Part shown: positions 39 to 61,300 of the stretch, piece by piece
Position numbering within the stretch: position 1 is the first letter of the stretch
How the letters are laid out: the number at the start of each line of letters is the position of its first letter
Source: Parcubacteria group bacterium
Lineage (GTDB): Bacteria; Patescibacteriota; Minisyncoccia; Phycocordibacterales; Phycocordibacteraceae
Assembly (NCBI GenBank): GCA_028286615.1
Contig: JAQBRG010000003.1
Span: 13,125 to 77,124 of the forward strand
Direction: 5' to 3'
Length of the DNA: 64,000 nucleotides
Made by a program: the position numbers and the translations under genes
The notes under the pieces: generated by a model
What the model was told of the DNA's origin: nothing
The model's database searches: none
Seen by the model: the letters and a program-made list of their open reading frames with translations, nothing else

Positions 39-122
39 GGTGCGCCGGGGAGGATTCGAACCTCCGAAGCCAGAGGCGGCACGTTTACAGCGTGCTTGTT
101 TTGACCACTTACCTACCGACGC
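39..122 (-). tRNA. tRNA-Tyr (anticodon GTA), class II with a long variable arm. The 3' end encodes discriminator A plus CC but not a full CCA.
   Basis: Read on the minus strand the sequence is GCGTCGG..GCACG-CTGTAAA-CGTGC..GGAGG-TTCGAAT-CCTCC-CCGGCGC-A-CC. The acceptor stem is 7 bp with one G-U pair. The anticodon stem is 5 bp with a 7-nt loop, U33, anticodon GTA and A37. The T-arm carries the canonical GGTTCGAATCC. A 13-nt variable arm with a small stem resembles bacterial tRNA-Tyr. The D-stem pairing is weak by my folding. Confidence 0.7.
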
Positions 123-897: not shown

Positions 898-965
898 CTA
901 TCCATACTGCCAAAAGTAAGGTGATGCAGCTGTCGATTTCTAATAAGAAACTGCTGAACTTATTA

Positions 966-2210: not shown

Positions 2211-2239
2211 GAGGCAAGTATAGCAGAATATGCTTAATC

Positions 2240-2872: not shown

Positions 2873-2874
2873 GC

Positions 2875-4539
2875 TTATACGGGCAGCTCAACAACGAATG
2901 TAGAACCTTTGCCTGCGCCCTCAGACTCTGCCCACACCTTTCCTTTGTGTGCCTCAATTATGTTCTTAACGATGTAGAGACCGAATCCAGTTGATTCAAC
3001 ATTAACTTTAGTTGATTCTTTGCCGTGTCCTCCCTCTGTAAAGAGATGGTGCATGTCCTCAGCAGTTATGCCCACGCCGGTGTCTTTAATATCGAAGTGT
3101 ATTTTTCCATCCTTCTGTGCAAGCGTTACGTCCACGCTTCCAGACGGTGTGTATTTAACTGAGTTGTCTATAAGGTTCTTGAATACGTTTACAAGCTGGC
3201 CGCGGTCCCCGGTAAACATAAGAGGTGCATCACCGGTATGAACATTAAGCGCAAGCCCTTTCTCATCGGCTACGCGTTTCTGCTCCGTAGCAATCTCATC
3301 TACAAGTGCCTTAAGGTCAAAGGACTCCATCTTGTATGAAACCTTTCCGCTCTTAATATTCGCAGCATTAAGAATCTCTTGAATGGTCTGAGTTCCCTTA
3401 GTGTCTGAGTTCAAACCTTCTTGAAGCATGGGGCGCATGGTATCGGGTACAGGTCCAAAGTCTCCATCAAGCACCATGGAGAAGATGTTTCGAGACTTAG
3501 CAACGAAGCCTTTGATTTGGTGCGTGATGAAGTGGATAAGAGTAACTTGCTGCTTGTTTGCCTGCTCAAGTTCTTTAGCAAGTTTTTCGATACGTTCACG
3601 CTGCTCAATCTCCCTTTTAACGCTTCGAAGTAACAAGTATCCCGCTGTAATAACGAACACAAGGGTAACGTATGTAATGTTGTGAGCTGTACCCACATCG
3701 TTGATCAGAAGAAGAGATCCAACCAGAAGAACTAGAGCCACAACCAGTATCTGTGCACCAAACACTTTAATATTAAAGAGTCGGAATCGAACCATGATGT
3801 ACGCAAGCATGCCTATGAATACAGGCACGCCAAATAGTCCATACTGCCCAATGGTCCAACTATAGTCTCCGAGAAAACTAAGGTCGCTAAAAAGGCTACC
3901 TATTATGTTTCCAAAGGCGAAGGATAGAAGAAAGAGGACAATTCCTGTTGAAGCTAATACAATCTGTTTTCTCTGGTCTCCAGGAGGAGTTTTCATGTGC
4001 CTACCAAACGCAAGCAATATTATCCAAATCGCAGATACGAATTCTAAGAAGAAACCGTAGTAGATCAGCGGACCTTCAACAGCATCCCTGTCACAACTGC
4101 TTAGATCGAAACCTGAAAGCGCGAGCATTGTTGGCGTGAGAACAATGATAGGAAGAAATGGGATAAAAATTAAAAGCTTCTTTTTAAAAGAAATGTCTTT
4201 CTTATCTATAAATACGTATACGAAATAGAGACTAAAAAGATACACAAGAGGCTCTGTGAGAATAGTGAGCGACCAGAAGAACATGGTAAATTCCGGTCTA
4301 TCCGTGGCCCATACGACCAAGTCAGAGAAGAGCCATGTGCCCAAACAAAGAGTTATAAGAAACAGAATTCTAGCCGCAAGCGACTTGCGATTCTTCATTA
4401 AAACAAAAAGTCCGAAACCAAGCGATACTACCAAGGCCGTTATGTGAGAATAATAGATCAAAGGATCAAAAACATTGCTTGAGAAAATCAAGAAACTAGG
4501 CCGCGCCCACTCACATGCTTGTATTACGTCAGAAATCAT
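2875..4539 (-). CDS. sensor histidine kinase with a polytopic N-terminal membrane domain and a C-terminal HATPase domain
   Basis: Multiple hydrophobic helices occupy the N-terminal 300 aa. An H-box region (ITHQIKGF) is followed by N, G1 and G2 boxes (NLIDNSVKY, DTGVGI, GTGFGLYIV). Confidence 0.85.
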   Translation of the reverse strand: MISDVIQACEWARPSFLIFSSNVFDPLIYYSHITALVVSLGFGLFVLMKNRKSLAARILFLITLCLGTWLFSDLVVWATDRPEFTMFFWSLTILTEPLVYLFSLYFVYVFIDKKDISFKKKLLIFIPFLPIIVLTPTMLALSGFDLSSCDRDAVEGPLIYYGFFLEFVSAIWIILLAFGRHMKTPPGDQRKQIVLASTGIVLFLLSFAFGNIIGSLFSDLSFLGDYSWTIGQYGLFGVPVFIGMLAYIMVRFRLFNIKVFGAQILVVALVLLVGSLLLINDVGTAHNITYVTLVFVITAGYLLLRSVKREIEQRERIEKLAKELEQANKQQVTLIHFITHQIKGFVAKSRNIFSMVLDGDFGPVPDTMRPMLQEGLNSDTKGTQTIQEILNAANIKSGKVSYKMESFDLKALVDEIATEQKRVADEKGLALNVHTGDAPLMFTGDRGQLVNVFKNLIDNSVKYTPSGSVDVTLAQKDGKIHFDIKDTGVGITAEDMHHLFTEGGHGKESTKVNVESTGFGLYIVKNIIEAHKGKVWAESEGAGKGSTFVVELPV

Positions 4540-4709
4540 ATTTGTACTTCAGGTGTGCTTGAGGCTTCCTCAGTATCTATTGTCTGTTCAGGCTCTGGTA
4601 GAAAAATGTCAAAATTTTGAATGACCACATACCTATAGTAAGTAACGCCGACAGAAGCCAGAATTACAAACGCAAACAACCAGAGAAATATCTTTGACTT
4701 CTTATCCAT
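4536..4709 (-). CDS. small (57 aa) single-TM protein, translationally coupled to the histidine kinase (ATGA stop/start overlap). It is not in the supplied ORF track.
   Basis: My manual translation gives MDKKSKIFLWLFAFVILASVGVTYYRYVVIQNF...PEVQI. It has a hydrophobic core, and its stop overlaps the HK start codon. Confidence 0.35.
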   Translation of the reverse strand: MDKKSKIFLWLFAFVILASVGVTYYRYVVIQNFDIFLPEPEQTIDTEEASSTPEVQI

Positions 4710-5199
4710 GCTTCTTGAGCTGATGGTAAGAATTATACACCCTCTGGAAATAGGTTGGCACGTAGGGCAGGTATTTCTTATACGTGGCTAAAGGTATGTG
4801 CTGAATTGAGCGTACAACAGGTCGGAAGCCTGGAACACTTTTCTTCTCGCCATTTTCCATTTCCCACAAGAGCGTCTCTTCAGTGATTGAGTAGTCGATT
4901 GTCACCTCCTCCCCTTTCTTTATATTTCTTAATGCAACAAAAGTAACCCTTCCTTTTATTCCCATATTTGGGTTACAGGAGTGATTCATATACAAAAAAG
5001 GATACGCAGGATCAATCCACGTATCTTTACCCACTCCTACCCAGTTGGGGCCTTCCTGAGCTGTGCTTTTGTCTTTCACGTGCCATTTTTTAAGTTTACC
5101 TTTAAGAATAAATATAATTTCTCCACGTTTAAAATTACGACTTGCGAATATACCCCTACCCTCGATGGAACTTTCTTTTACATAAATGTTCCGGGTCAT
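4702..5199 (-). CDS. SET-domain protein (putative lysine methyltransferase), paralog 1
   Basis: The SET signature NHSCNPN is present, followed by a downstream ...VTIDYS... motif, about 165 aa total, with a hydrophobic Tyr-rich C-terminus. Confidence 0.8.
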   Translation of the reverse strand: MTRNIYVKESSIEGRGIFASRNFKRGEIIFILKGKLKKWHVKDKSTAQEGPNWVGVGKDTWIDPAYPFLYMNHSCNPNMGIKGRVTFVALRNIKKGEEVTIDYSITEETLLWEMENGEKKSVPGFRPVVRSIQHIPLATYKKYLPYVPTYFQRVYNSYHQLKKHG

Positions 5200-5205
5200 G
5201 AGTAT

Positions 5206-5700
5206 TTAAGCTTGAACCAAGTCAGTACCCTGCTGATGCTTTAAGTATAGCTTTTTGAAATAGGTAGGCACATACGGTAAGTATTTCTTGAACTGCTCAT
5301 TGGGAATATATCGTATTGAGCGGATCACTTTGCGACAATTGGCTTCCCCACACGAACAAGGCATTTCCCAAAGATCATCTCCTTCGATAATTGAGTAGTC
5401 AACCGTGATCTCCTCGCCCTCTCTAATATCTTTGAGAGCAACCATGGTAACTGTGCCCTTTATTCCAGAATTTGGGTTACAAGAGTGGTTTAGATACTGG
5501 TTAGGTGCATTCGGGTCTATCCATTTGTTTTTTCCAATGCCAATCCAGTTAGGGTACGAAAGAGACTCCTCTTTAGAGGTAATGGCAAGGAATTTAGCCT
5601 CACCCTTTATGTGCTGTATAGTTTCTCCTTTCTTGATATCCTCTCCAGCCGTAACCCCCTGGCCATCAATCTTGCTAGTGCAAATATATATATGCTTCAT
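5206..5700 (-). CDS. SET-domain protein, paralog 2, with a post-SET Cys cluster
   Basis: NHSCNPN and ITVDYS are present, plus CSCGEANC (post-SET zinc cluster). It is collinear with and similar to the adjacent 4702..5199 protein. Confidence 0.8.
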   Translation of the reverse strand: MKHIYICTSKIDGQGVTAGEDIKKGETIQHIKGEAKFLAITSKEESLSYPNWIGIGKNKWIDPNAPNQYLNHSCNPNSGIKGTVTMVALKDIREGEEITVDYSIIEGDDLWEMPCSCGEANCRKVIRSIRYIPNEQFKKYLPYVPTYFKKLYLKHQQGTDLVQA

Positions 5701-5798
5701 AAGCCTTTGCTTTGATTATACTAGACTAATAATGGTAAAAAATGCAATCTTTGGTAATAAGTGTAAAAAGAGGTCTGCATCGCTGGAGCGAGCAGACC

Positions 5799-6380
5799 TC
5801 AAGTTTTTTGGAACTTTTTGTAGAGAACCAACACCAGGATGAGGCTGTGAGTTCCGAGATGCACTACAGGAAAGGCTAGCTCCCCTAAGTGGTTCAGACG
5901 CATCAGCACAACAACGAGGTGCAGAGCGTATGCGACGGACCAAACAGCCCATGGCAGCCAGTGTTCTTTATGCTTGTCTGCCAAGATGTCTCTGGCCATA
6001 GGCCTGAAAGACAGGACGGTGCTTGCTTGGTAGAGCAGGTTTGCAACAAGTGCGGTGGTGAAGAGCCAGAGGAAGGTGATGAAGGTATCCAATCCGAAGA
6101 TCAGCCAATCTTCTTTCTCTGGCTTATCGAGCCGCCCTTTTGCAAACAAGTACCCAACCATAATCATGCAGGCCATGGAACAGGTGAAAGGAAGAACTTC
6201 CTTAACCCAGTCCTCGGCAACGAACGCGTACGACAAGGCGTCCACGAACGCACCGAAAGCCCACATGACCCAAGAGCCGGCGCCTGCTTGTTTGGTTAGT
6301 TTGACGTAGAGGTAATACCCCAGTAATTGCGTCGCCCCGGCCAACAAGCCCAGGGCAACCGAAAAATGTTCGGTACCCAT
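5799..6380 (-). CDS. polytopic membrane protein of unknown function (locally GC-rich)
   Basis: There are 5-6 hydrophobic helices. GC is by eye higher than the flanks. No motif recognised. Confidence 0.5.
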   Translation of the reverse strand: MGTEHFSVALGLLAGATQLLGYYLYVKLTKQAGAGSWVMWAFGAFVDALSYAFVAEDWVKEVLPFTCSMACMIMVGYLFAKGRLDKPEKEDWLIFGLDTFITFLWLFTTALVANLLYQASTVLSFRPMARDILADKHKEHWLPWAVWSVAYALHLVVVLMRLNHLGELAFPVVHLGTHSLILVLVLYKKFQKT

Positions 6381-6533
6381 CAGGGCCTCCTATGGCTAGT
6401 GTTCAAATATCAAGCAATGAAGCTCTTTTACAGAGCTTTACATCACAACTGACGTGATTATAGCATATACTTGTTATTTTGCAAGTATATCTCTAGTTCG
6501 AAACTATAATAATAGTGGCATACTGTTTTAACT

Positions 6534-7394
6534 ATGACCACCGAATCTCTAGCAACCTATCCAGGAGTACAGAAAGTGTTGGAAGGTAGCGCTGCAGGTA
6601 AGGAGCTCTTGGTCATCGCTGGCATACATGGAAATGAGACATGCGGTATTGAAGCTATGCAAGCATTGCTTCCTACGCTCTCTGTCTCTGCAGGACGCGT
6701 AACATTTATACATGGAAATATGCAGGCCATAGAAAATAACGTTCGTTTTGTGGAACAAAATCTCAACCGGCTGTTTAGACCGTCTTCGGAACTCTCGGAA
6801 ACTCAGAAAAGCTCTTATGAGTACGTTCGCACGCAAGAACTCATGCCACTTATAGAACAGTCTGATGCAGTACTTGATATCCACTCTAGTGCAACAATCG
6901 GATCTCCCCCGTTTGTTATATGCGGGCGTCAAAATATTGATGAAGCCAAAAGACTTCCATTTCCTCTTATATCGTATGGGTGGGACGCTCTTGAACCTGG
7001 CGGTACTGATGATTACGCTTTAAGAAAGGGTGTAAGTGGCATTACCGTTGAGTGCGGTTTTCATAAAGACCCAGAGGCTGTTGTGCTTGCTCAAGAAGCC
7101 ATACGTGCATTTCTCTACCTGCATGGAGCTATTAATAGCTATGTATCAAACTTTACATCAGCCACGCCGCAAGAAATTGAAGTAATTTCAATACATCATA
7201 CAAAATCTGACTTCGTTCCTTCGAGAGTCTTTAAAGATTTTGAGGAAGTTGCAAAAGGTGACGTGATGGGAACAGATGGCAAGGACACAATACACGTACT
7301 TGAACCGGGTGTAGTTGTTTTTGTACGTACACGCACAAGTCCAAAGGAAGAGGCTTTTATTTTCGGGAAAATAGTACCACCAATGTCTATTTAA
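6534..7394 (+). CDS. succinylglutamate desuccinylase/aspartoacylase (AstE/AspA) family zinc hydrolase
   Basis: The GIHGNE(T)CG motif near the N-terminus is typical of the AstE/AspA metallo-carboxypeptidase-like fold. Later His/Glu residues are present. Confidence 0.7.
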   Translation: MTTESLATYPGVQKVLEGSAAGKELLVIAGIHGNETCGIEAMQALLPTLSVSAGRVTFIHGNMQAIENNVRFVEQNLNRLFRPSSELSETQKSSYEYVRTQELMPLIEQSDAVLDIHSSATIGSPPFVICGRQNIDEAKRLPFPLISYGWDALEPGGTDDYALRKGVSGITVECGFHKDPEAVVLAQEAIRAFLYLHGAINSYVSNFTSATPQEIEVISIHHTKSDFVPSRVFKDFEEVAKGDVMGTDGKDTIHVLEPGVVVFVRTRTSPKEEAFIFGKIVPPMSI

Positions 7395-7517
7395 AGAGTG
7401 TAAATACAAATGCTACTATTAATAACACACAACGCAGGGTTCATCTTCCAAAATTGTGCAGAGCAACAGAGGTGGAGGTCCCTTCCGTCTCGCTTTTGAA
7501 GTTAAGAAAATCGTAAC

Positions 7518-8516
7518 ATGTCAACAAATAAAATATCACAATCTCCTGCGCGTCTCGAACAAGGAGATCTTGTTCGAGTAATATCTTTTGGATTAAGCTT
7601 AAAAGGAGCATCTCTTTCTCAACGAGAAATTTGCAATATGAATCTGACCGCACTCGGTCTTCGTGTCTCTTTTGGTAAGCATATTGAATCAAGCGATGAG
7701 TTTGATACCTCCAGCGTTGCAGACCGAATAGAAGATTTACACGAAGCTTTGCTAGACCCTGAAGTCAAAATGATAATGTCTGGTTTGGGTGGCATGAACG
7801 CTGCACAAATTCTACAGTCAATAAACTGGGAGTTGTTGAGAGAAAACCCAAAGATATTTTGTGGATTTTCTGATATGGCGGTACTTGTAAATGCCATTTA
7901 CGCAAAAACAGGAATTGTAACTTATTACGGTCCTTTCTACGGCACTTTTGGAATGAAGAAGGGAGCTGAGTATATGTTGGAATCATTCCGATCTTGCATG
8001 CTGTCTGATGATCCGTTTGTTGTTAATCCCGCTCCTGATTGGAGTGATGATTGGTGGTGGGACGATCAAGAAAACAGAACTTTTGTTCTAAATACCGGAC
8101 CCCTTGTTATAAATGAAGGTGAAGCTCAGGGTAAGTTACTTGGCGGTCATATCACATCTCTAGCTACAATTTTCGGAACTGATTTTTGTCCAGACTTATC
8201 AAACGCTCTCCTTATGTTAGAGGAGAATAGTGAAATTAATCCAAGATCATTTGACCGTTTGCTTCAGTGCGTAATACTTCAAAAAGGCTTTGACAAAGTA
8301 AAGGCGATTTTGATTGGACGATTCACCACACCAACCAAAATAACTGACGAGATTCTAATAAAGATTATTCGCAGTCACCCTGAACTCTCTCAGATTCCAG
8401 TGGTTTCGAATCTGAGTTTTGGGCACACATACCCCCAATTCACTTTTCCGATAGGTGGTACTGGTCGGATAAATGCAAAAGAAAACAAAGTAACTTTTGA
8501 GATTCTTGATCATTAA
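7518..8516 (+). CDS. ldcA: LD-carboxypeptidase (peptidase S66, LdcA/MccF-like)
   Basis: The nucleophile motif GFSDMAVL is present, with C-terminal His/Glu in an LLGGHITSL...E context, about 330 aa. Confidence 0.8.
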   Translation: MSTNKISQSPARLEQGDLVRVISFGLSLKGASLSQREICNMNLTALGLRVSFGKHIESSDEFDTSSVADRIEDLHEALLDPEVKMIMSGLGGMNAAQILQSINWELLRENPKIFCGFSDMAVLVNAIYAKTGIVTYYGPFYGTFGMKKGAEYMLESFRSCMLSDDPFVVNPAPDWSDDWWWDDQENRTFVLNTGPLVINEGEAQGKLLGGHITSLATIFGTDFCPDLSNALLMLEENSEINPRSFDRLLQCVILQKGFDKVKAILIGRFTTPTKITDEILIKIIRSHPELSQIPVVSNLSFGHTYPQFTFPIGGTGRINAKENKVTFEILDH

Positions 8517-8529
8517 GACTTTATATTTT

Positions 8530-9948
8530 TTAAATATCAAGGTCTAAAAGTTCGGTCAGACTGTTTATGCTTAAGTACCTTGACTCATCCAAGTCTGAGA
8601 TGTTTTGTACACGCCATGAATTAGGATTCCTAAAATGAATTCCTCTAAGACCAGCCTGAAGTGCTGGCTCTATATCTGAACGTAAACTATTTCCTACCAC
8701 TAAAAATTCACCAGAATCAAGATTAAAATCGTACCTCAATCGCCCAAGCGAGCTTACATCTTTAGATTTTACGACGCAAAGTGCATGAAAGTATTCGGCT
8801 AATCCAGAGCGAGCAATTTTCTCAAACTGAATTGACAGTGGTCCTTGTGTATAGAGAACAAGTCCATCACCACGTTTCCATAGCTTTGATAGCACTGCAA
8901 TTGCATCGGCAGTCAAGGTTTCTGGCTGACTCCTTAGAGTAGGGATGATTGATTCAAATAACTCCGTGGGTCTGGGAATCAACTTTCCAGAAAGAAGGAG
9001 ATTCGCATAAATAGTCTCTAGAGAAATCTTAAAACCAGGCGCGCCAAAACCGTGCTCAAGTATTACTTTTTCCTCCATATCGTCTATCATCTGACGAACT
9101 TCTTGCTCAGTTATTTCCTGTAGGTAAGGAAGACAGTGTTCAATAAAATCATCAACTATTTTCATGTAAGCAATGTTGTCCTCCCATAGAGTGTCGTCAC
9201 CATCAATTATCCATGTTCTTCGAAAAGTCCCATCTAACGAAGCTGTTTTACAAAAGTAGTAATCCCCTTCTTCTGGGAAGACCGCTGGAATCGTGTGCTT
9301 GCCCTCAGAAAATTTACTGTAAAGATATCCAAAATTCTGCGGCGTAATCTCGCCAAGTAATTGCTCTGCGTTAACTGAAAAACCTGCCTCCTCAAAAGCA
9401 GTCAGTTTCTTTGGGTTGTTGCTAAGGAGAGAGATTTTTTTAATATCCATGTCCTTAAGGATTTTAAAAGCGAGCGAATAGATTCTACCGTCAGTTTCAA
9501 AAGCAAGCTTTTCATAAGCGCCGTAAGTGCTCAGAGACTGTGACTGCATGGTGTACATTCCTAAGTATTTTGAAAAGATACCTGCTCCACGCCCTTCTTG
9601 AAATAAATGAATCAGTACTCCATTTTCTTGTCTCAAAATATCAATCGAACGCAGGAGCTGGCTGCGACAGTCGCAATCAAAGCTTCCTAGTATGTCGCTG
9701 TTAGCGCATGACGAATGAAGTCTTATTGGAACTACACGGGAAGTGTTTAAAAATTCAGGTTCATTGAAGATTACAACCAATGCAGTTTGTTCCTTATCAG
9801 TGTAAATACAGGAATACACGAGACCATTGCTGGTAAAATGTCTAACAAATGGAGTTTTCGTAGTCTCTTCGTCGACTTGTATCGTCGGATCGTAGAGAGC
9901 GTTGTTTATTTGCTCTGTCCCAATATTAGTTTTTCGTGCCGATGTCAT
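8530..9948 (-). CDS. fusion protein: N-terminal GTP cyclohydrolase II (RibA)-like domain plus C-terminal HAD-superfamily hydrolase domain
   Basis: The RibA zinc site is present as RLHSSCANSDILGSFDCDCRSQL, with QEGRGAGI and LSNNPKKL (compare E. coli RVHSEC..CDCG, RQEGRNIGL, LTNNPKK). The C-terminal half carries HAD motif I, IIDGDDTLWED. Confidence 0.75.
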   Translation of the reverse strand: MTSARKTNIGTEQINNALYDPTIQVDEETTKTPFVRHFTSNGLVYSCIYTDKEQTALVVIFNEPEFLNTSRVVPIRLHSSCANSDILGSFDCDCRSQLLRSIDILRQENGVLIHLFQEGRGAGIFSKYLGMYTMQSQSLSTYGAYEKLAFETDGRIYSLAFKILKDMDIKKISLLSNNPKKLTAFEEAGFSVNAEQLLGEITPQNFGYLYSKFSEGKHTIPAVFPEEGDYYFCKTASLDGTFRRTWIIDGDDTLWEDNIAYMKIVDDFIEHCLPYLQEITEQEVRQMIDDMEEKVILEHGFGAPGFKISLETIYANLLLSGKLIPRPTELFESIIPTLRSQPETLTADAIAVLSKLWKRGDGLVLYTQGPLSIQFEKIARSGLAEYFHALCVVKSKDVSSLGRLRYDFNLDSGEFLVVGNSLRSDIEPALQAGLRGIHFRNPNSWRVQNISDLDESRYLSINSLTELLDLDI

Positions 9949-9965
9949 AAGTCTGAGTATAACTT

Positions 9966-12752
9966 TTATATCTCGTCTTTTATTAAGCTAAACCGAATGT
10001 TTCCTGTAGAAATTTCCGCAGTATGCACTCCATCAATAGACTTCTCCACTCTAATTCTATCTTTTGTTGAAAATCCTTCCTGTTTACGTGCTTCTGCAAC
10101 TGCGCGCATGAGAGCTCGCTCATCGCCCTCTGCAACAAGCTCCGGAGTGAGTTCAGTATCAAGTGCAAGTTTGTCAGAGTTTTGTACAACATTCTTAACA
10201 TTCACTTCTTCTGCGAGTATGGAGATAAGTTCATTAGAAATCTCACCGGGAATAAAAAGCTGTGCAAGCGGTTGTCGAACAACGATACCTGCTTTTTGTC
10301 GTAACATAAGTACCTCACTTGCCAGAGAGCGCACTCGAGACATCTCTGTTATTAGTAGCACGTCCTTTTTTTCAGACTTATCCCAAACAGAGTCAAGGGG
10401 CCACATCGAAAGATGTACACTTTCGGGATCATCAACGGTTTTCACGTTTTGATAGATCTCCTCAGCAATAAATGGTGCTGCAGGCGCCATAAGTATAGCT
10501 AGGGTATGTAGTGTGTATCGAAGTGTTGCAAGCGCAGCTGCCTTGTCTTCGCCATCGTCTTTAAAACGATCACGCGAACGACGTGTATACCATGCGGATA
10601 AATCATCAATTAAAAGTCCGAGTGGGCGTGTGGCCGCATGGAGTTCATAACGTTCGTACGCCCCAGTCACACCCTTCATGAGTTCGTTAATGCGTGCAAG
10701 TATCCAACGATCAAGAGGGTGAACGCTATTCGCGTGAGGCAAAGTTTTATTTTTATAAAGCTCATAAAACGTAAGCACGTTTCTTAAGCGTCCAATACTC
10801 TTCTTTGCCACCTCCTCCACTCCGCTCTCAGAAAATGCCAGATCCTCTGCCTGTACTACAGTTGAGGAAAGTAAATAAAGCCGAAGTGCATCGGCGCCAT
10901 ACTTTTCAACCATATCCATAGGGTCGGGATAATTTTGAAGACGCTTTGACATCTTCTTTCCGTCTTCCGCAAGTACGATTCCGTTCACAATAACGTTCTT
11001 AAATGCCGGCTTTCCAAATAAGCCACCTGATAGTACATGTAGATAATAAAACCAAGCACGAGTCTGGTCAGTACCTTCGGCGATAAATTGTGCTGGAAAT
11101 ACTGCGTCAAATTCGTCTTTGTTTTCAAAGGGATAGTGACGAGAAGCGTACGGCATGGATCCAGAGTCAAACCAGGTGTCCAAAACATCTGGTACTCGTT
11201 GCATAATGCCCCCACAGCTACAGGGTACTTTAATCTCATCTACGATATGCTTATGTAGATCACTCACTACCATGCCGCTCGCTGTCTCAAGTTCGCCGGC
11301 ACTGCCAAAGACACGTTTTTCTTTACAGGTATTACATATCCAAATAGGAATAACGCTAGCCCAAAAGCGCTGACGAGAAATGGACCAGTCCCGGGCATTT
11401 TCAAGCCATTTGCCAAAACGACCCTCCTTTATGTGTGCAGGCGACCAATTAATTTCCTTTGCGTTGTCTAATAGATTTTCCTTTAGCTTTACCACTGAAA
11501 TAAACCAGGATGAAGTAGCATAATTAAGAAGTGGTGTATCACAGCGCCAACAGTGAGGATACGCATGCATAATATTCTCTTTTGAGAAGAATAAATTATG
11601 CTCTTGAAGATATTTAAGAATAGCGATATCAGTACCAAGTCTAGTTTTGCTATCGTCAGACTTTGGGCGCACCTCCATTCCTGCGAAATCAACAACTTCT
11701 TCTTTCATTGTGCCATCAAAATTCACATGCTGTACGAAAGGTAGGTTCTCTTGCTTAAGAAGCTCCCAATCCTCAGCACCAAAGGCAGGTGCTTCATGCG
11801 CAATAGCTGTTCCGCTGTCTTCAGTTATAAAATCTGCAGCGTATACTTTCCAACCGTTCTCTCGGTTCTTCAAGTCTTGATCTTTATAGTAGTAGTCAAA
11901 AAGTGGCTTATATTTTTTGCCAACGAGTTCGCTGCCATGAAATAATCTTGACGGTGCGCCGAGGCCCAGAGTGATAGCCTGCTGAGCTCCTACAATTATA
12001 TTTTCACCATCTTTTTCATATAGACCATATTCAATATCATTTCCGACAGCAAGCGCGACATTCCCTGGCAAAGTCCATGGTGTCGTTGTCCAAGCGAGAA
12101 AATATGTACCCGGCTCGTCGACAGATTCAAACTTTACTGTAACTGCGATATCCTTAACGTCTTTGTATCCTTCTGCAACTTCTGTCTGTGCCAGAGTTGT
12201 CTCGCAACGAGGGCAAATATGCATGGAGCGATAGTCCTCATACACCAAACCTTTGTCATATATCTCTTTAAAAACCCACCACACGCTCTCCATGAATGAT
12301 TTATCCATGGTGCGATAAGCGTTTTTCATATCCACGAAACGTCCAATACGAGGAATTATCTTCTCCCACTCTTGAGCGTATGATAATACTCGCTCGCGGC
12401 AAAGTTCGTTAAATTTTGCAACACCAAATTCTTTTATGTCTCGTTTATGCTTGAAACCCAGCTCTTTCTCAACAATATTTTCTATTGGTAGTCCGTGACA
12501 ATCCCAACCCCAAATACGTGGCACATGGTATCCGCGCATAGTGAAATAACGCGGAATAGCGTCTTTAATTACACTCGCAACAATGTGGCCATAATGCGGC
12601 AAACCAGTCGCAAAAGGCGGACCATCATAAAAAATGAAATCACCTGAAGGCGCCGGTTTCTCAAGCGTTTTCTCAAAGATACGGTTCTTATTCCAAAAGT
12701 GCAGCACTACCTCTTCCCGCTTGGCGGTGTCGGTTTTTTTTGGATTCATCAT
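9966..12752 (-). CDS. ileS: isoleucyl-tRNA synthetase
   Basis: HIGH motif (PHYGHI), KMSKS (KMSKRL), the WCISRQR-like motif and an editing domain are present; 928 aa. Confidence 0.95.
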   Translation of the reverse strand: MMNPKKTDTAKREEVVLHFWNKNRIFEKTLEKPAPSGDFIFYDGPPFATGLPHYGHIVASVIKDAIPRYFTMRGYHVPRIWGWDCHGLPIENIVEKELGFKHKRDIKEFGVAKFNELCRERVLSYAQEWEKIIPRIGRFVDMKNAYRTMDKSFMESVWWVFKEIYDKGLVYEDYRSMHICPRCETTLAQTEVAEGYKDVKDIAVTVKFESVDEPGTYFLAWTTTPWTLPGNVALAVGNDIEYGLYEKDGENIIVGAQQAITLGLGAPSRLFHGSELVGKKYKPLFDYYYKDQDLKNRENGWKVYAADFITEDSGTAIAHEAPAFGAEDWELLKQENLPFVQHVNFDGTMKEEVVDFAGMEVRPKSDDSKTRLGTDIAILKYLQEHNLFFSKENIMHAYPHCWRCDTPLLNYATSSWFISVVKLKENLLDNAKEINWSPAHIKEGRFGKWLENARDWSISRQRFWASVIPIWICNTCKEKRVFGSAGELETASGMVVSDLHKHIVDEIKVPCSCGGIMQRVPDVLDTWFDSGSMPYASRHYPFENKDEFDAVFPAQFIAEGTDQTRAWFYYLHVLSGGLFGKPAFKNVIVNGIVLAEDGKKMSKRLQNYPDPMDMVEKYGADALRLYLLSSTVVQAEDLAFSESGVEEVAKKSIGRLRNVLTFYELYKNKTLPHANSVHPLDRWILARINELMKGVTGAYERYELHAATRPLGLLIDDLSAWYTRRSRDRFKDDGEDKAAALATLRYTLHTLAILMAPAAPFIAEEIYQNVKTVDDPESVHLSMWPLDSVWDKSEKKDVLLITEMSRVRSLASEVLMLRQKAGIVVRQPLAQLFIPGEISNELISILAEEVNVKNVVQNSDKLALDTELTPELVAEGDERALMRAVAEARKQEGFSTKDRIRVEKSIDGVHTAEISTGNIRFSLIKDEI

Positions 12753-13597
12753 ACGTTCAAATTATTCTCTGAGAATCCACAGCACAAATTACCTTTCTCT
12801 AGAGGTAATCCATTAAACCAAAGACGATGCATTTTCCTACCACTACCTGCCTCAAAAGCAGTTCTTGCATGTAAGACTGTTAAATTGTCTGTAATTAACA
12901 CTTGCTTTGATTTAAGATTAAAACTTACTAAATTTCTCTTGTCAGATAAGAAATTAGCCAATAAGTGAAATCCTTTTTGTATATCTTTATTCTCAGAAGC
13001 GGACGCAGCATCATCTGTCCGATATCGAATCGCTACCCGATTTTCTGAAAACTTTTTAAATACTGCTCCTGAGAAAGACTTGCCTGCACGAGTGATCGAA
13101 AGCGCATTTTCTTTATAAAGAGCCGCTAGAGCTTCTTTGTCACTAGACATTAGCAATTCGTGAAGTTTTTTTCCACTCGCAAGTTGAGTTATTCCGCCGC
13201 TCTCCGCGGGTGTCTGACACCTTAGAGCGACAATCCTTGGTGGATTTTCATCATACGAACCATCTGTGTGAAAGGTGTAAGCTCGTGATGAAATACCGGG
13301 ATATGGTGAAGTTTCATCAATTACAGCTACTTCCGCAATGCCTTGAACATCAGACCGGTCATGGCTCATTATTTCTCCAAAAATCTCTTTAAAACACAGT
13401 AGTTGTTCGTGTGGGGGCTCATTTTCCTCAAATTCAACAATAACTACTCCGTATGTATTTAATAGTTGGCAAATTTGCGAAGTAAAAGACAGGATTTCTC
13501 TAGAAGAAGGTACTGTAACAAGTAAGGCTTCAGGCGCAAGCTCTGAATCGAAGGCTTGTTTTGGCTGGTCTTCACATGTTTGGGAAAGCAAATCCAT
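12749..13597 (-). CDS. TauD/TfdA-family Fe(II)/2-oxoglutarate-dependent dioxygenase
   Basis: The H-x-D iron motif in FHTDGSY is present, with a later His and Arg (VLHARTAF), about 280 aa. Its stop overlaps the ileS start. Confidence 0.65.
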   Translation of the reverse strand: MDLLSQTCEDQPKQAFDSELAPEALLVTVPSSREILSFTSQICQLLNTYGVVIVEFEENEPPHEQLLCFKEIFGEIMSHDRSDVQGIAEVAVIDETSPYPGISSRAYTFHTDGSYDENPPRIVALRCQTPAESGGITQLASGKKLHELLMSSDKEALAALYKENALSITRAGKSFSGAVFKKFSENRVAIRYRTDDAASASENKDIQKGFHLLANFLSDKRNLVSFNLKSKQVLITDNLTVLHARTAFEAGSGRKMHRLWFNGLPLEKGNLCCGFSENNLNV

Positions 13598-13632
13598 ATT
13601 GTTTAACTAAAAATCAATTTCCTTTGAATACA

Positions 13633-14394
13633 CTAAATTTTACTCCAGGAAATAATATCCCCAACCTTAATGTTAAGTTTTTTAGCTCCTAAGTCTCGTG
13701 CCTGCCCTAGTTCAAATAACCCAAATGAACTACCAGTAAAAAATGCCCAAGCACCTGTCTCTAGAGACATCATGCGCTGTTCATAAACAGCTACAAACTT
13801 ATTGTTATTAATTACAACCTGGTAAGAATCTCCAGGTGATGCATCACCTAAGTCACCAACAAATTTCATCATTCCAAAATTATCAATATGCACAATAGTA
13901 CCAACTGCTAAATCGAGCCTTACGATGCCGCTAGGATCGATTGCTTCACCAAGCTCTGAGAGTGGTGTTCCTAGCGCCGCAGCAGCCGCAACTTTTGCAG
14001 TAACATATTTCCCAGCGAATGATACGAACTCACCGGCATTATACTTTGTAAGATCATAAAGTTCTGCACATCCAAAATCTCGTGTCAACCAATCAAAACT
14101 ACCCATATTTCTACCGATAAAGACAATGTTACGGTCCTTAGTTCGACCGACAACATTCATCGGCCTAACTTTTTCAGCATTTATAGTTGTCATTAAGACG
14201 CTATTTTCTGGATATGAGTCAGCCATAAGGCGAACAGCAAAGTTGGTATTTATAACTGAGAATTCTGGAGAAATGGGCGTAATTGGGGGTACTACTACAT
14301 CTGGCATTTTCTCAACCTCACGTGCAAGGACTGCATAGAGTTCACTCGCAGCTATGTCGGTACAGTCAGTAATGTTTACGAGATATTTTTTCAC
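13633..14394 (-). CDS. DUF62 / SAM hydroxide adenosyltransferase (fluorinase/chlorinase-like) family protein
   Basis: The C-terminal-domain signature HIDNFGM (compare HIDxFGN) is present, with a terminal GSSFGLFELGQ...VGD region resembling GSSGLLEIAVNQG..GD. The N-terminal DFG-type motif is degenerate (TDCTD). Confidence 0.55.
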   Translation of the reverse strand: MKKYLVNITDCTDIAASELYAVLAREVEKMPDVVVPPITPISPEFSVINTNFAVRLMADSYPENSVLMTTINAEKVRPMNVVGRTKDRNIVFIGRNMGSFDWLTRDFGCAELYDLTKYNAGEFVSFAGKYVTAKVAAAAALGTPLSELGEAIDPSGIVRLDLAVGTIVHIDNFGMMKFVGDLGDASPGDSYQVVINNNKFVAVYEQRMMSLETGAWAFFTGSSFGLFELGQARDLGAKKLNIKVGDIISWSKI

Positions 14395-14491
14395 TTAAAT
14401 ATAATACCATTATTCGACAAACCCGCAATTCTCATTCATTACCCTAATGAAGGCAGCAACAAGCTTCTTTCAAACTGTGCGCCTGCATCAT

Positions 14492-16282
14492 CTAAGATGC
14501 ATCAGTCAAAAAACTTCCTGCTTGAATACTCCATAACTTGTGATACAAACCACTCTTGTCGTCCAAGAGTTCAGTATGAGTTCCCTCAGCAGCAATCTTT
14601 CCTCCTTCAATAACAACAATACGATCCATAGTCATGATGGTTGAGAGACGGTGAGCAATAACAATAACTGTCTTCCCTTCCATAAGAACCTTAAGCGCAT
14701 CTTGGATTAGATGTTCTGACTCGGAGTCGAGACTCGAGGTTGCTTCGTCGAGTACGAGTATTGATGCATCCTTAAGAATTGCACGGGCTATAGCCACGCG
14801 CTGGCGTTCTCCTCCTGAAAGCTTCACGCCTCGTTCCCCTACGTGAGTATCGTACCCAAGAGGAAGTGAGGTTATGAACTCGTGACAATGCGCCTTCTTT
14901 GCGGCAGCAATAATCTCTTCTTCGGTAGCATCTGCTTTTCCGTAACTAATGTTCTCCCGGAGAGTTCGGTGGAAGAGTGCGGGTTCTTGAGGCACGAACG
15001 CAATAGCTTTGCGTAGACTTTCCTGAGTAACCTTGGTTATGTCCTGCCCATCAATCTGTATTGTGCCGCTTGTAGCGTCATAGAGACGTAATAGCAACTT
15101 CGTAATGGTGGACTTCCCAGCTCCAGAAGGGCCAACGAGAGCAATCTTCTCTCCGCCCTTAATTGCAAGGTTGAAATTGGAGAGCACGGGACGTTCAGGA
15201 TCAAAGAAGAAAGAGATATCGTTAAATGCCACTACTCGTTCAGAAACCTTAAGTTCCTTAGCATTAGGTACGTCGAGAATTGCATGCGGTGTCTCAATGA
15301 TATCTATCATTTCTGAGGCATCTGCGAAGGCATCATATAGACGTCGCATATTGCTGCCGATATTCCAAAGGCGTTCTATAAGCGCGATGATGTAGACCTG
15401 TATCAATACAAAGTCCCCTATGGTTATGCGCCCTTGTTCCCAAAGATATACAGACCCAACCAATAGGCCGATCTCAACCGCAATAGCTAGAAGACCTTGG
15501 ATAGCATAATTCCAGGCATCAGCATTCCAAGCGCGCATAGTAGCTGCTCGCCACTTTCCTACAATTTCAGCAAAGAAAGCTTGCTCCCTACCCTCAGCAG
15601 CGAACTGCATAACGGCTGAATGGTTCCCAATAGCATCAGAAAGTACACCGGTCATGCGGCTGTCCTGAGCAGCTCTTTCTACTTTGTACTCATGGCGCCA
15701 ACGGGTCATGAATATCTGAAGCGTAATAAATAGAATGGTCCAGATTAGCAATCCGGTTCCCAAGATAGGGTTTCGTAAGAAGAGCACAACAATAACACCA
15801 ATAGCAAATAGTGCCGTAGGAAAGAAGTTTAAAAGAAAACTATCAAGTACCTGTTCAAAGGAACGGGCGTAACGCGTAACGCGGCGAGTAAGCGTTCCGG
15901 TAAAGTTCGAGATAAAGAAGTCATGTGCATGTCCAAGTAGATACCCGAACCCTCTATTTGAGAGATCTGCCATTACCCTACTCTCTACACCCATAACAGA
16001 AACCATCTGTATTCTGCGTCCAAGCCAGCCAATGAGCGACATAAGACCGTACCCAATCAGTATAAAGAGAAGTGCGTGCACAATTTCCCCAGACGGAGTT
16101 GATTGCGAGATAGTATTTATGAACTCGCGCATGAACAGAGGTGCAGTAATACCTGACCCCTCAAGAAGCAGTGTGCCAAAGATAATACTCCCTAAAATAT
16201 AGGGGTATTTAATTGCTGCAGCGTAATAATCCCGCAGAACGGGCCATATACGAGCTACTTTCTTTTCTTGATCCGGCGGCAT
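14492..16282 (-). CDS. ABC transporter, fused permease/ATPase (MsbA-like exporter)
   Basis: Six TM helices are followed by Walker A (GPSGAGKST), the ABC signature (LSGGERQR) and Walker B (ILVLDEATS). Confidence 0.9.
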   Translation of the reverse strand: MPPDQEKKVARIWPVLRDYYAAAIKYPYILGSIIFGTLLLEGSGITAPLFMREFINTISQSTPSGEIVHALLFILIGYGLMSLIGWLGRRIQMVSVMGVESRVMADLSNRGFGYLLGHAHDFFISNFTGTLTRRVTRYARSFEQVLDSFLLNFFPTALFAIGVIVVLFLRNPILGTGLLIWTILFITLQIFMTRWRHEYKVERAAQDSRMTGVLSDAIGNHSAVMQFAAEGREQAFFAEIVGKWRAATMRAWNADAWNYAIQGLLAIAVEIGLLVGSVYLWEQGRITIGDFVLIQVYIIALIERLWNIGSNMRRLYDAFADASEMIDIIETPHAILDVPNAKELKVSERVVAFNDISFFFDPERPVLSNFNLAIKGGEKIALVGPSGAGKSTITKLLLRLYDATSGTIQIDGQDITKVTQESLRKAIAFVPQEPALFHRTLRENISYGKADATEEEIIAAAKKAHCHEFITSLPLGYDTHVGERGVKLSGGERQRVAIARAILKDASILVLDEATSSLDSESEHLIQDALKVLMEGKTVIVIAHRLSTIMTMDRIVVIEGGKIAAEGTHTELLDDKSGLYHKLWSIQAGSFLTDAS

Positions 16283-16329: not shown

Positions 16330-16857
16330 CTAGTGAATGAAGAGGAAGAGTCCGATGAGAGGAGCAATAAACCACCAGAAGAAGTATCCCTGAGGAGCAA
16401 AGAAGGTATCAAGAGGAGCTGGGAATGTATATATATTGCTGATATCGAACACGTGGTATCCAAGGGCAAGAAGAAACGCTGCGGTTAAGAACGAGAGCAT
16501 AAAGCGGGGCACTACAGAAAGTACTCCAAACCCGCTTCCAACTAATCTTTGTACGAAAAGATACGGCGCAATAGTTGCAGCTGCATACAGGACGATACTA
16601 ATAACCGCTTTCATCATGGTTGAGCCTCCTGCGCTGATTATCTTTTCCGTAAATGGAAAGACTATATAGATTGCGTAGCCAACATAAAGGCCAACAATAA
16701 GAGAGATGATGCCGCCCCTCCCTCCCTTGTAGGAAAAGAGGATCATGACAATGGTAAGCACGAGAAGTACCAAGAAGTTCCCTATCCAAAGAGAGGCACT
16801 GGAGATGCCTGTAGTTGTAAGGTTACTTACCTGCTCAGCAACCGTATTGATGTCCAT
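16330..16857 (-). CDS. membrane protein, unknown function
   Basis: Four or five hydrophobic helices; no motif recognised. Confidence 0.45.
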   Translation of the reverse strand: MDINTVAEQVSNLTTTGISSASLWIGNFLVLLVLTIVMILFSYKGGRGGIISLIVGLYVGYAIYIVFPFTEKIISAGGSTMMKAVISIVLYAAATIAPYLFVQRLVGSGFGVLSVVPRFMLSFLTAAFLLALGYHVFDISNIYTFPAPLDTFFAPQGYFFWWFIAPLIGLFLFIH

Positions 16858-21895: not shown

Positions 21896-22438
21896 TTAAA
21901 AGAAGCTTAAGATCCAGGAGATAAGAGAATTCCAGATCTGGATGATGCGCGAAGGTGTGTGCTCAGCCGTTGTGGTGGCTTCTGTGCTGGTAGCTGTAGT
22001 GGTGGCAGCAACCTCAACAGGGGCAACTACAGGCGCTGGTTTTTCGTATGCAGTGCAGTATCCAGGAGTTGGCTCGTTCATACAGGCACGCATCGTACAG
22101 ATGCTCTGGCCGTTAGGCCGTTTGCTGCAAGAGTTACAGCCATCGAACCACGCAATACAGCTTGCGGGCGGCTTGTACGGCTCAGTTGGTTTTATGGGGC
22201 CAGATTCTTTCTCGGTACACTCTCCATCATGAATATAGGTTCCCTTTTCAGCTCCAAGGGTGCAGCTGTTGCCGTACGTGTGATACATAGGGTAGCAAGG
22301 CGCGGCAAAGCACTGTACCTGCTGTGCTCCACAGACTGGTTGATACTGTTGAGTACACATTGTTTGTTCTTCAGCACGAACTAGCTGAGGGGCTACTATC
22401 GCCACCAGGAATGCGAGGGGAATAAGAATAGATTTCAT
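21896..22438 (-). CDS. secreted Cys-rich protein with a Kazal-like motif, a Thr/Ala-rich linker and a C-terminal hydrophobic anchor
   Basis: A signal peptide is present. QPVCG...TYGNSC resembles the Kazal PxCG...TYxNxC core. There are 15 Cys. A TTTATSTEATTTAE linker precedes a hydrophobic C-terminus. Confidence 0.55.
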   Translation of the reverse strand: MKSILIPLAFLVAIVAPQLVRAEEQTMCTQQYQPVCGAQQVQCFAAPCYPMYHTYGNSCTLGAEKGTYIHDGECTEKESGPIKPTEPYKPPASCIAWFDGCNSCSKRPNGQSICTMRACMNEPTPGYCTAYEKPAPVVAPVEVAATTTATSTEATTTAEHTPSRIIQIWNSLISWILSFF

Positions 22439-27446: not shown

Positions 27447-27452
27447 ATGAGT

Positions 27453-27887: not shown

Positions 27888-27905
27888 AGGAAATTATATA
27901 AAGGA

Positions 27906-61298: not shown

Positions 61299-61300
61299 AA

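Follow-up and report, generated by a model that had tools for sequence, protein, structure and literature searches.

A GTP cyclohydrolase II–HAD fusion of Parcubacteria probably belongs to a rare, horizontally shared gene cassette, most likely concerned with nucleoside inhibitors of isoleucyl-tRNA synthetase

The window analysed here (the whole stretch of 64,000 nucleotides from contig JAQBRG010000003.1 of a Parcubacteria group bacterium) harbors a gene for a GTP cyclohydrolase II (GCH II, RibA) domain fused to a HAD phosphatase domain. This gene is the last in a row on the minus strand, preceded by genes for a divergent protein of the SAM_HAT fold (the fold of DUF62 proteins, fluorinase and chlorinase), a TauD-like oxygenase and an isoleucyl-tRNA synthetase (IleRS), and it is met at its 3′ end by the convergent gene of an S66 peptidase (Table 1). 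The five minus-strand open reading frames (ORFs) listed in a first-pass annotation of this DNA, the fifth being an ABC exporter, are confirmed with their coordinates, as is the 4-nt ATGA overlap between the TauD stop and the ileS start. The remaining intergenic gaps measure 35 nt (SAM_HAT to TauD) and 17 nt (ileS to fusion). Together with a linkage that recurs in many independent loci, these gaps place the co-orientation beyond chance. The gap upstream of the SAM_HAT-like gene was not flagged by a consensus promoter scan; it is the probable start of the SAM_HAT-TauD-ileS-fusion transcription unit. Linkage of the genes, integrity of their domains and recurrence of the cassette across lineages are direct observations.

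Table 1. Coordinates of the cassette genes and of their immediate neighbours in the window
Feature	Position	Strand	Length	Assignment and remarks
AstE/AspA-family (M14-like) amidohydrolase	6534..7394	+		PF24827 (2.6e-22); weak Csd4/M99 match; directly upstream of S66; GC3 0.33
S66 serine peptidase, MccF-like clade	7518..8516	+	332 aa	PF02016 + PF17676; convergent with the fusion, stops 13 nt apart
GTP cyclohydrolase II–HAD phosphatase fusion	8530..9948	-	472 aa	RibA domain ~aa 1-225 (nt 9274-9948); HAD ~aa 240-472 (nt 8533-9231)
Isoleucyl-tRNA synthetase (ileS), type-2/MupA-like	9966..12752	-	928 aa	TIGR00392; HYGH and KMSKR motifs
TauD/TfdA-family Fe(II)/2-oxoglutarate oxygenase	12749..13597	-	282 aa	PF02668
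Divergent SAM_HAT-fold (DUF62/fluorinase/chlorinase fold) protein	13633..14394	-	253 aa	PF01887; AlphaFold2/Foldseek
Intergenic region upstream of the SAM_HAT-like gene	14395..14491	-	97 nt	Only sizeable gap in the gene row; AT-rich, TATTAT/TATAT-like elements
MsbA-like ABC exporter	14492..16282	-	596 aa	ABC_membrane + ABC_tran; neighbour outside the conserved cassette

Residues 45–193 of the fusion match PF00925 (GTP_cyclohydro2) with E = 1.9e-31 and 109.3 bits at a cutoff of 23.3, and the family profile retrieves the RibA structures 4RL4, 4I14 and 2BZ0 at about 1e-31 to 1e-33. With Cys54, Cys65, Cys67, Tyr105 and Arg128 of the E. coli enzyme as reference residues for zinc binding and catalysis, alignment and residue indexing locate the catalytic set at Arg76, His78, Cys81, Cys92, Cys94, QEGR117–120, Tyr132, Arg155, Asn177, Asn178 and Lys181. 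The zinc-cysteine spacing C81-x10-C92-x-C94 is invariant in the fusion family, and Arg155 likewise. The core had initially been described as CxxGxxxxSxxCDC, of which the cysteine spacing holds; the exact pattern is the E. coli form, and its glycine position is occupied by serine here (CANSDILGSFDCDC). In the HMMER alignment to 2BZ0, Tyr132 corresponds to E. coli Tyr105, a position which varies in distant members (Y, H, A or S across the family) and lies next to the nearly invariant Met131. A Tyr-to-Met switch leading to a GCH III-like product was also considered; an ungapped alignment places Tyr105 on Met131, whereas the HMMER alignment places it on Tyr132, and the switch was not used as an argument.

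By its sequence the C-terminal half is clearly a HAD domain despite a PF00702 score of 17.1 bits, below the cutoff of 26.4. It matches TIGR02253 at 8e-12, and a 20-sequence family profile retrieves the HAD structures 3DDH (6.6e-31) and 2PKE (1.6e-25), for which no functional information was obtained from the PDB. The HAD motifs are found as D249-G-D251-D-T253 (motif I, within the DGDDTLW stretch reported before, residues 249–255), Thr367, Lys396 and G-N420-S-L-R-S-D425, the GNSxxSD form of the latter being common to the fusion and 3DDH. DxDDT is kept in 18/18 short orthologues.

About 27 such fusion proteins are found among 5.8 billion clusters. The short form (460–490 aa, 59–77% identical) occurs in Parcubacteria, Paceibacteria and Taylorbacteria, and the long form (558–672 aa, 38–45% identical) carries an additional N-terminal domain of about 230 residues without a Pfam match. 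In pattern scans, only five contigs from 185,579 species genomes carried full-length orthologues; metagenomes added a few others. Related loci and proteins are denoted below by L and P numbers. The N-terminal domain is conserved among the long forms P0021–P0026 (L008 10001–12019 and 8800–9771; L013 6137–8958), and a second copy forms a separate ORF at L008 12339–12776. Several long forms lack the HAD nucleophile, GGDD or AGDD replacing DxDD, and an intact paralogue of this HAD is encoded next door by a separate gene at L008 and L013, the two long-form loci inspected. The public gene call of the orthologue P0018 (368 aa; L004 9746–11104) starts too late, as the tblastn match is unbroken over query residues 19–472.

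An ordinary role in riboflavin biosynthesis would have the RibA domain fused to the 5-amino-6-ribitylamino-uracil 5′-phosphate phosphatase, and the remaining rib genes encoded in other parts of the genome. In its favour, the fusion has a canonical GCH II active site, the riboflavin pathway requires a HAD phosphatase, an FMN-type flavodoxin-like reductase is encoded at 49453–50037, and NCBI uses the name ribA. Such a role is nevertheless extremely unlikely. No ribD, ribE, ribH, ribB or ribF and no FMN riboswitch are present within the 64-kb window, in agreement with the first-pass annotation, which had seen none of the first three; nor are rib genes listed on the flanks of orthologous loci. The fusion remains below the RibA equivalog and subfamily cutoffs (TIGR00505, 104.6 against 205.85 bits; NF001591, 132.4 against 148), its distribution is rare and patchy, its conserved partners are SAM_HAT, TauD and S66 genes, and the trio of HAD, GCH II and SAM_HAT recurs in secondary-metabolite clusters. 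The non-riboflavin role proposed at first pass is thus likely for this rare accessory gene, and the fusion is probably part of a rare, horizontally shared cassette and not a vitamin B2 gene. The dephosphorylated, GTP-derived pyrimidine suggested as its product is a plausible prediction. The public names 'ribA' and 'HAD hydrolase-like protein' are likely an annotation error, which is corrected here.

The SAM_HAT-like protein matches the N-terminal domain model PF01887 (32.6 bits, cutoff 26.3), the C-terminal domain (PF20257) staying under its cutoff. Its AlphaFold2 model has a pLDDT (predicted local distance difference test) of 93.5, and the top 40 Foldseek matches in the PDB all belong to the SAM_HAT family (TM 0.76–0.83, 16–21% identity), among them T. 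maritima DUF62, the (R)-S-adenosylmethionine (SAM) hydrolase MJ1651, SalL, fluorinase and PH0463. The predicted structure has the two-domain SAM_HAT fold. As regards the initial domain assignments as a whole, GTP_cyclohydro2 and TauD score above their cutoffs, the exporter matches both ABC domains, HAD is secured through TIGR02253 and 3DDH, and for DUF62 the N-terminal model passes its cutoff and the predicted structure supports the fold.

In profile alignments the triad Asp68/Arg75/His127 of PH0463 is replaced by Asn72/Met79/Ala127, and an invariant arginine (Arg77) is located two residues ahead of the Arg75 column. Tyr70/Gly131 of SalL correspond to Thr70/Gly128. The ribose-binding aspartate (Asp10) and the G-K motif are conserved; the DPGVG motif is absent. 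The score against the (R)-SAM hydrolase model NF058624 is 24.6 bits at a cutoff of 350. Judged by these residues the protein is a member of the fold and not a SAM hydrolase. Since the aspartate and histidine of the triad are missing, the name 'hydrolase' given at first pass is not justified and a non-water nucleophile is suggested. Enzymes of the SAM_HAT family catalyse SN2 displacements at C5′ of nucleosides.

The SAM_HAT-like subfamily is small as well, with 57 representative clusters at E ≤ 1e-30 in 1.84 billion. In one member, P0301, the domain is fused to a HAD_2 phosphatase, a pairing which recalls SalL with its later-acting phosphatase SalN. A HAD protein is therefore fused to RibA in Parcubacteria and to SAM_HAT in P0301, and has an adjoining gene of its own in Kitasatospora. 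The HADs of the three are non-orthologous, and their recurrence supports a shared pathway for GCH II, phosphatase and SAM_HAT-like enzyme. Two further members (P0296 and P0298, about 510 aa) possess an N-terminal domain of about 250 residues without a Pfam match, with a nucleotidyltransferase-like GS...DIDxS motif (an assignment by motif only). No relatives were found on viral contigs searched with the family or on PLSDB plasmids searched with the window protein.

The TauD-like protein matches PF02668 with 4.1e-30 and 106 bits (cutoff 27) and contains the HxD...H facial triad (His110, Asp112, His243). All equivalog matches lie far under their cutoffs, so that no assignment at the substrate level can be made. 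Remote relatives are found among TmpA/TMLH/BBOX (TmpA, 6.8e-6) and in the isonitrile desaturase 7TCL (7.9e-6), on which no functional information was obtained from the PDB. TauD-family enzymes hydroxylate the carbon adjoining a leaving group. The gene is paired with that of the SAM_HAT-like protein in one Parcubacteria arrangement (variant A, below) and in L015, L047, L049, L051, L052 and L054. The embedded ileS scores 852.6 bits against TIGR00392 (cutoff 621).

The S66 peptidase is most similar to the 'MccF-like' BA_5613 (2.2e-92) and Lmo1638 (5e-85) among PDB entries, followed by true MccF at about 1e-34 and LdcA at about 1e-17. With the catalytic residues Ser118, Glu236/237 and His303 in place, its sequence assigns it to the MccF rather than the LdcA side of the family. 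A tryptophan-rich loop, DWSDDWWWDD (residues 174–183), is conserved with BA_5613 and may provide a counterpart of Trp186, the nucleobase-stacking residue of E. coli MccF. A model for muramoyltetrapeptide carboxypeptidases is matched far below its curated cutoff.

At the level of single proteins, the genes might be understood as metabolite damage control or salvage in a host-dependent bacterium, without a common pathway. RibA-HAD would clean up oxidised or excess guanine nucleotides, the SAM_HAT-like protein would remove inactive (R)-SAM or salvage adenosine and methionine, and S66 would recycle murein peptides. E. coli RibA hydrolyses 8-oxo-(d)GTP, and the fusion HAD presumably resembles house-cleaning nucleotidases of the YjjG type, its matches to the YjjG and PynA nucleotidase models being weak. 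The (R)-SAM hydrolase model is the nearest NCBIfam model for the SAM_HAT-like protein, the carboxypeptidase model is matched by S66, and an AstE/Csd4-like amidase is encoded upstream of the latter. Even so, this explanation is quite improbable: the nucleotidase, hydrolase and carboxypeptidase matches are all far under curated cutoffs, the hydrolase triad is incomplete as described above, and the rarity of the fusions and SAM_HAT-like clusters, the foreign composition and the embedding in actinomycete clusters of nonribosomal peptide synthetases (NRPS) and polyketide synthases (PKS) would not be expected for housekeeping repair.

Linkage was derived from tblastn searches of the neighbour proteins against all loci and from the gene lists of the loci. 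The fusion, a SAM_HAT-like gene within 5 kb upstream and the convergent S66 gene are found together in all 12–13 Parcubacteria loci with enough flank, S66 converging on the 3′ end of the fusion in each of them; it is also linked in L013, L015 and L054. Two arrangements exist. Variant A (the window, L004, L012, L023, L024, L026 and L029) has the order SAM_HAT-TauD-ileS-fusion, and variant B (L002, L006, L011, L025 and L028) consists of a PrpD-like gene, SAM_HAT and the gene of a P-loop protein on one side and, in divergent orientation, the fusion on the other, preceded in some loci by a gene for a RimL-type GNAT or a phosphoribosyltransferase. L027 follows variant B, yet ileS adjoins its fusion, so that ileS is adjacent in 8/13 loci. 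The linkage of the SAM_HAT-like and fusion genes seen at first pass is general among these loci, and TauD joins them in variant A; the most constant partner, S66, had been overlooked, and ileS is a frequent rather than a general companion. As the outer flanks differ wholly between loci, the linkage is not merely due to common ancestry of whole regions. None of the partners accompany the RibA-only loci from the pattern scans (L016–L022 and L034–L046), which are ordinary RibA genes. In L004, from the REEB413 metagenome-assembled genome, a Transposase_mut gene and a large serine recombinase bracket the cassette (4172–5056 and 12248–13573), consistent with mobility.

Composition sets the cassette apart from its genome. 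The GC content at third codon positions (GC3) of the AstE-like, S66, fusion, ileS, TauD and SAM_HAT genes is 0.28–0.37 (ileS, 0.374), compared to 0.47 ± 0.05 for 15 housekeeping genes, and the cassette including ileS thus looks like an acquired island. The ABC exporter, which the first-pass annotation had counted as part of the unit, is not retained: it has near-genomic GC3 (0.42) and a promoter-like site of its own (16319–16291), is separated by the 97-nt gap, and lacks a cassette-linked orthologue at all other loci. The AstE-like gene was likewise rejected as a member, being linked in this genome only, and membrane proteins encoded at 5799–6380 and 16330–16857 are not counterparts of the P-loop protein of variant B.

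The same set, or part of it, also turns up in unrelated genomes. A contig of GC 0.60 binned as Caulobacter (L015) encodes a TauD-like protein (37% identity), SAM_HAT (58%), S66 (59%) and a RibA whose C-terminal half is degenerate, the module being GC-poorer than its own flanks; it also lies beside two large proteins (757 and 787 aa) without Pfam or PADLOC matches. L054 contains SAM_HAT (56%), TauD and S66 (66%) in a row. In Nomurabacteria (L052/L053) TauD-SAM_HAT (77%) is near genes for an alpha/beta-hydrolase, a P-loop protein and an S51 peptidase. One strand of L013 (Bdellovibrionales) encodes, in this order, a core paralogue of AsnRS/AsnA type, a SAM methyltransferase, a short ProRS, a second and strongly divergent paralogue resembling ProRS, S66, the long-form fusion and the stand-alone HAD; the aminoacyl-tRNA synthetase (aaRS) paralogues (210–5051, +) upstream of S66-fusion-HAD suggest a related cassette aimed at other aaRSs.

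In two Kitasatospora strains, a first run of genes encodes TauD, ATP-grasp, carbamoyltransferase, GDSL-like, HAD, GCH II and SAM_HAT (54%) proteins, followed by an alpha/beta-hydrolase, a condensation (C) domain, an IleRS (TIGR00392, 791 bits), MbtH with adenylation and peptidyl carrier domains, a major facilitator superfamily (MFS) protein and an NRPS. HAD and GCH II are unfused here, within NRPS clusters. The cluster IleRS has no relative above 79% identity, its nearest relatives being mostly Pseudonocardia IleRS (74–78%); as a genus-typical housekeeping gene would show a different pattern, it looks like an acquired (xenologous) extra copy. L049 has an 'IleRS with GNAT'-type IleRS beside a PKS/NRPS cluster with DUF455, TauD, two SAM_HAT genes, GDSL and carbamoyltransferase, and Kutzneria has TauD-MFS-SAM_HAT. 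aaRS genes thus accompany the module in four lineages (Parcubacteria, Kitasatospora, L049 and L013). A further actinomycete pairing of GCH II and HAD, here with sulfur-transfer genes, occurs in Streptomyces lomondensis (L019 7070–13744, +), which encodes a sulfotransferase, a sulfatase, GCH II, a 378-aa protein, a HAD 56% identical to that of the Kitasatospora cluster and a 444-aa protein. The sulfotransferase and sulfatase prompted a comparison with the nucleocidin and ascamycin clusters, which was dropped, as the literature found on these does not mention a GTP cyclohydrolase.

Nucleoside-forming and -tailoring enzymes, aaRS genes in four lineages and enzymes of the immunity type lead to a reading as metabolism of an IleRS-directed aminoacyl-nucleoside. 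Most likely the cassette either makes or neutralises a nucleoside inhibitor of IleRS. Tentatively, we favour the more specific reading of region 7518–14394 as a compact mobile cassette providing both a pathway for, and protection from, such a compound. The RibA domain would open the imidazole ring of GTP with release of pyrophosphate and formate, giving 2,5-diamino-6-ribosylamino-4(3H)-pyrimidinone 5′-phosphate, from which the fused HAD would strip the 5′-phosphate to leave the nucleoside. The SAM_HAT-fold enzyme and the TauD-like oxygenase may tailor a nucleoside at or near C5′. By analogy to SbzA and AbmK (see below), the embedded IleRS might supply activated isoleucine, transfer isoleucine to the scaffold and/or represent an insensitive copy. 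By analogy to MccF and MccE, S66 would cleave the toxic aminoacyl-nucleoside in the producer, a part for which the RimL-like GNAT may substitute in variant B. The nucleoside or antimetabolite pathway possibly tied to ileS, as proposed at first pass, gains support from the Kitasatospora NRPS clusters, the IleRS of L049 and the low GC3 of ileS.

Several observations weigh against a producing cassette of this kind. An amino-acid ligase similar to MccB or AbmF is not encoded in the window, where by analogy to SbzA only IleRS could fill the coupling role; the Kitasatospora version has ATP-grasp and C domains. ileS is absent from 5/13 Parcubacteria loci and from L015, L052 and L054, and RibA is absent from L047, L049, L052 and L054; with each of the two missing from several loci, SAM_HAT and TauD form the only universal pair. 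The window contains four aaRS genes, and genomes of the Candidate Phyla Radiation (CPR) are aaRS-dense, so that some of the aaRS adjacency is probably due to chance. This probably applies to the TyrRS adjoining a 248-aa SAM_HAT group in L050, which scores as an ordinary TyrRS and was not taken as part of the cassette. The S66 family includes murein LD-carboxypeptidases, and to our knowledge no function is known for the closest relatives BA_5613 and Lmo1638; a literature search found none either. Finally, the L015 module (4691–13914) adjoins a candidate defence gene of the SIR2 type (PDC-S65, 666 bits) as well as an Upx-like gene, and that of L054 follows McrB/McrC; such neighbours are no less compatible with resistance or defence than with biosynthesis.

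The same neighbours would suit an anti-phage or abortive-infection system depleting GTP (RibA-HAD) and SAM (SAM_HAT-like protein) upon infection, and nucleotide-depleting defence systems are known. This is very unlikely, as PADLOC v2 has no match for the fusion, TauD, SAM_HAT-like or S66 proteins (0 families) and only the L015 neighbours match. In addition, no conserved sensor or regulator is present, the viral contigs yielded no SAM_HAT-like protein and hence no phage counterpart, and the linkage to IleRS, the partners TauD and S66 and the NRPS/PKS context would be left unexplained.

The principal alternative is an island for detoxification only, which would degrade exogenous aminoacyl-nucleoside inhibitors of aaRSs originating from neighbours or hosts such as actinomycetes. 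S66 would remove the aminoacyl group, SAM_HAT and TauD would cut the bond between C5′ and its leaving group (sulfamate, sulfonium or phosphate), RibA-HAD would destroy a purine nucleotide analogue, and IleRS would be an insensitive replacement. Oxidative removal of sulfonate, sulfate or phosphate is the chemistry of TauD-family enzymes such as TauD, AtsK and LipL. Minimal versions with neither a ligase nor a scaffold-forming enzyme (SAM_HAT-TauD-S66 in L054, TauD-SAM_HAT near S51 in L052) and the adjacency to McrBC (L054) and to SIR2/PDC-S65 and Upx-like genes (L015) point in the same direction. Moreover, the enzymes MccF (S66), MccE2 (GNAT) and MccG (S51) inactivate aminoacyl-nucleotide inhibitors of aaRSs, most of the many MccF and MccG homologues stand alone, and those of MccG have been proposed as a source of basal resistance (PMC8323819, PMC9239234). 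Detoxification as the sole function is unlikely all the same. In Kitasatospora the TauD, HAD, GCH II and SAM_HAT genes are co-directional with ATP-grasp, carbamoyltransferase and NRPS genes, and a biosynthetic operon would be an unusual place for four enzymes of detoxification; a GTP-specific ring opener with a canonical active site would likewise make an odd detoxifier.

Returning to the producing and protecting cassette, a further-reaching version of this reading is that the four CPR enzymes and IleRS constitute the minimal pathway for a new class of GTP-derived, IleRS-inhibiting aminoacyl-nucleosides. These would have a ring-opened ribosylaminopyrimidine scaffold with a new, non-hydrolytic substitution at C5′ by the SAM_HAT-like enzyme, the cassette IleRS attaching isoleucine and conferring immunity, and Kitasatospora would elaborate the compound with NRPS, ATP-grasp and carbamoyltransferase. 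Taken as a whole, this version is doubtful.

IleRS is the target of mupirocin. If the cassette does make an IleRS-directed nucleoside, it would point to a new scaffold of natural inhibitors, active on a target already validated for antibiotics and produced by a very small, easily expressed gene set. It would also provide the first secondary-metabolic role for a GCH II–HAD fusion and extend the SAM_HAT (fluorinase/chlorinase) fold to a new type of reaction. CPR bacteria, which are usually seen as metabolically minimal, would then carry modules of the antibiotic or anti-antibiotic kind and share them with actinomycetes and Proteobacteria, a rare case of antibiotic-type chemistry in ultra-small episymbiotic bacteria. 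A detoxification island would instead contain new resistance enzymes against aminoacyl-nucleoside antibiotics.

Further features of the window are found outside the cassette. Tandem SET-domain proteins (165 and 164 aa; 4702–5700, −), unusual in bacteria, also adjoin the cassette on the Logan contig L001. A LeuRS (951 aa; 43488–46343, −) has an unusual aaRS architecture with a NUDIX domain (PF00293, 5.5e-12, residues 407–510) inserted after the editing domain. A CBASS-like defence pair (60720–62644, −) comprises a nucleotide cyclase with SMODS and AGS_C domains (61301–62644) and a SLATT_4 effector with two transmembrane segments (60720–61340). The only tRNA of the window (41–122) is overlapped by a LAGLIDADG_3 homing-endonuclease-like ORF (109–897, −). 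Pfam gives no match at E ≤ 1e-5 for eight sizeable ORFs (21896–22438, 23589–24203, 27443–28114, 28716–29987, 30170–30778, 31756–32904, 40862–42259 and 59849–60616).

Among known systems, riboflavin-pathway RibA and HAD phosphatases share with the fusion the fold, the zinc-cysteine triad, the catalytic tyrosine and arginine, and the presence of a phosphatase in the pathway. In contrast to them, the fusion scores below the equivalog cutoffs, carries a HAD of the 3DDH type, has no rib neighbours and is encoded by an accessory mobile gene, and its phosphatase would take the GCH II product itself as substrate instead of following RibD. GCH II homologues in non-riboflavin metabolism are known from toxoflavin (ToxB), and S. 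coelicolor SCO6655 yields a formamido intermediate via a Tyr-to-Met switch. Ring opening of GTP as the proposed entry to a non-riboflavin product is common to these and the cassette, whereas genes of the ToxE, ToxD and ToxA types are absent here and the fusion keeps the tyrosine (Tyr132 in the HMMER alignment). With SAM hydroxide adenosyltransferase (DUF62), FlA and SalL, the SAM_HAT-like protein shares the two-domain fold (TM about 0.8 for the model), the ribose-binding aspartate and the G-K motif; low identity and the loss of both DPGVG and the Asp and His of the Asp-Arg-His triad separate it from these.

The S66 peptidase resembles the immunity enzymes of microcin C, being more similar to MccF than LdcA and having an intact Ser-His-Glu triad, and GNAT (MccE2/RimL) and S51 (MccG) genes accompany other versions of the module: a RimL-type GNAT adjoins the fusion in L006, L011 and L030, and an S51 peptidase is close to TauD-SAM_HAT in L052. 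Unlike in microcin C clusters, genes of the mccA/mccB type are missing from the window, and the proposed substrate is isoleucyl instead of aspartyl. Clusters for albomycin (abm) and agrocin 84 (agn), aaRS inhibitors of the aminoacyl-nucleoside/nucleotide type, have an aaRS gene within the cluster as well, and abm carries ATP-grasp and carbamoyltransferase genes, as the Kitasatospora version does. They differ in target aaRS, nucleoside chemistry and the Trojan-horse moiety for uptake, and the window lacks a siderophore or opine part. Nucleoside-antibiotic clusters often carry an aaRS, such as AbmK (SerRS) for immunity and supply of the seryl-adenylate that is coupled to the nucleoside in albomycin and AgnB2 (LeuRS) for immunity in agrocin 84, and MetRS and AsnRS genes occur in related clusters (PMC8323819).

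A cluster-encoded IleRS homologue is also found in the sbz cluster (altemicidin, SB-203207 and SB-203208; IleRS inhibition) of Streptomyces sp. NCIMB 40513, where SbzA transfers L-Ile onto the scaffold of SB-203207 and is also a resistance marker (PMC13518217). SAM and nucleotide building blocks, an Fe(II)/2-oxoglutarate dioxygenase and GNATs are further common elements. The pyridoxal phosphate-dependent SbzP and the cupin/sulfonamide genes are absent here, however, the sbz nucleotide is beta-NAD and not GTP, and neither GCH II nor a phosphatase or S66 enzyme is mentioned where sbz is described (PMC13518217). A literature search, the PADLOC models and curated families contained no description of the present gene set. 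As read here, the cassette would fit a known kind, that of nucleoside clusters for aaRS inhibitors which encode an aaRS and immunity enzymes of their own, although its enzymes and its host group would be new to that kind.

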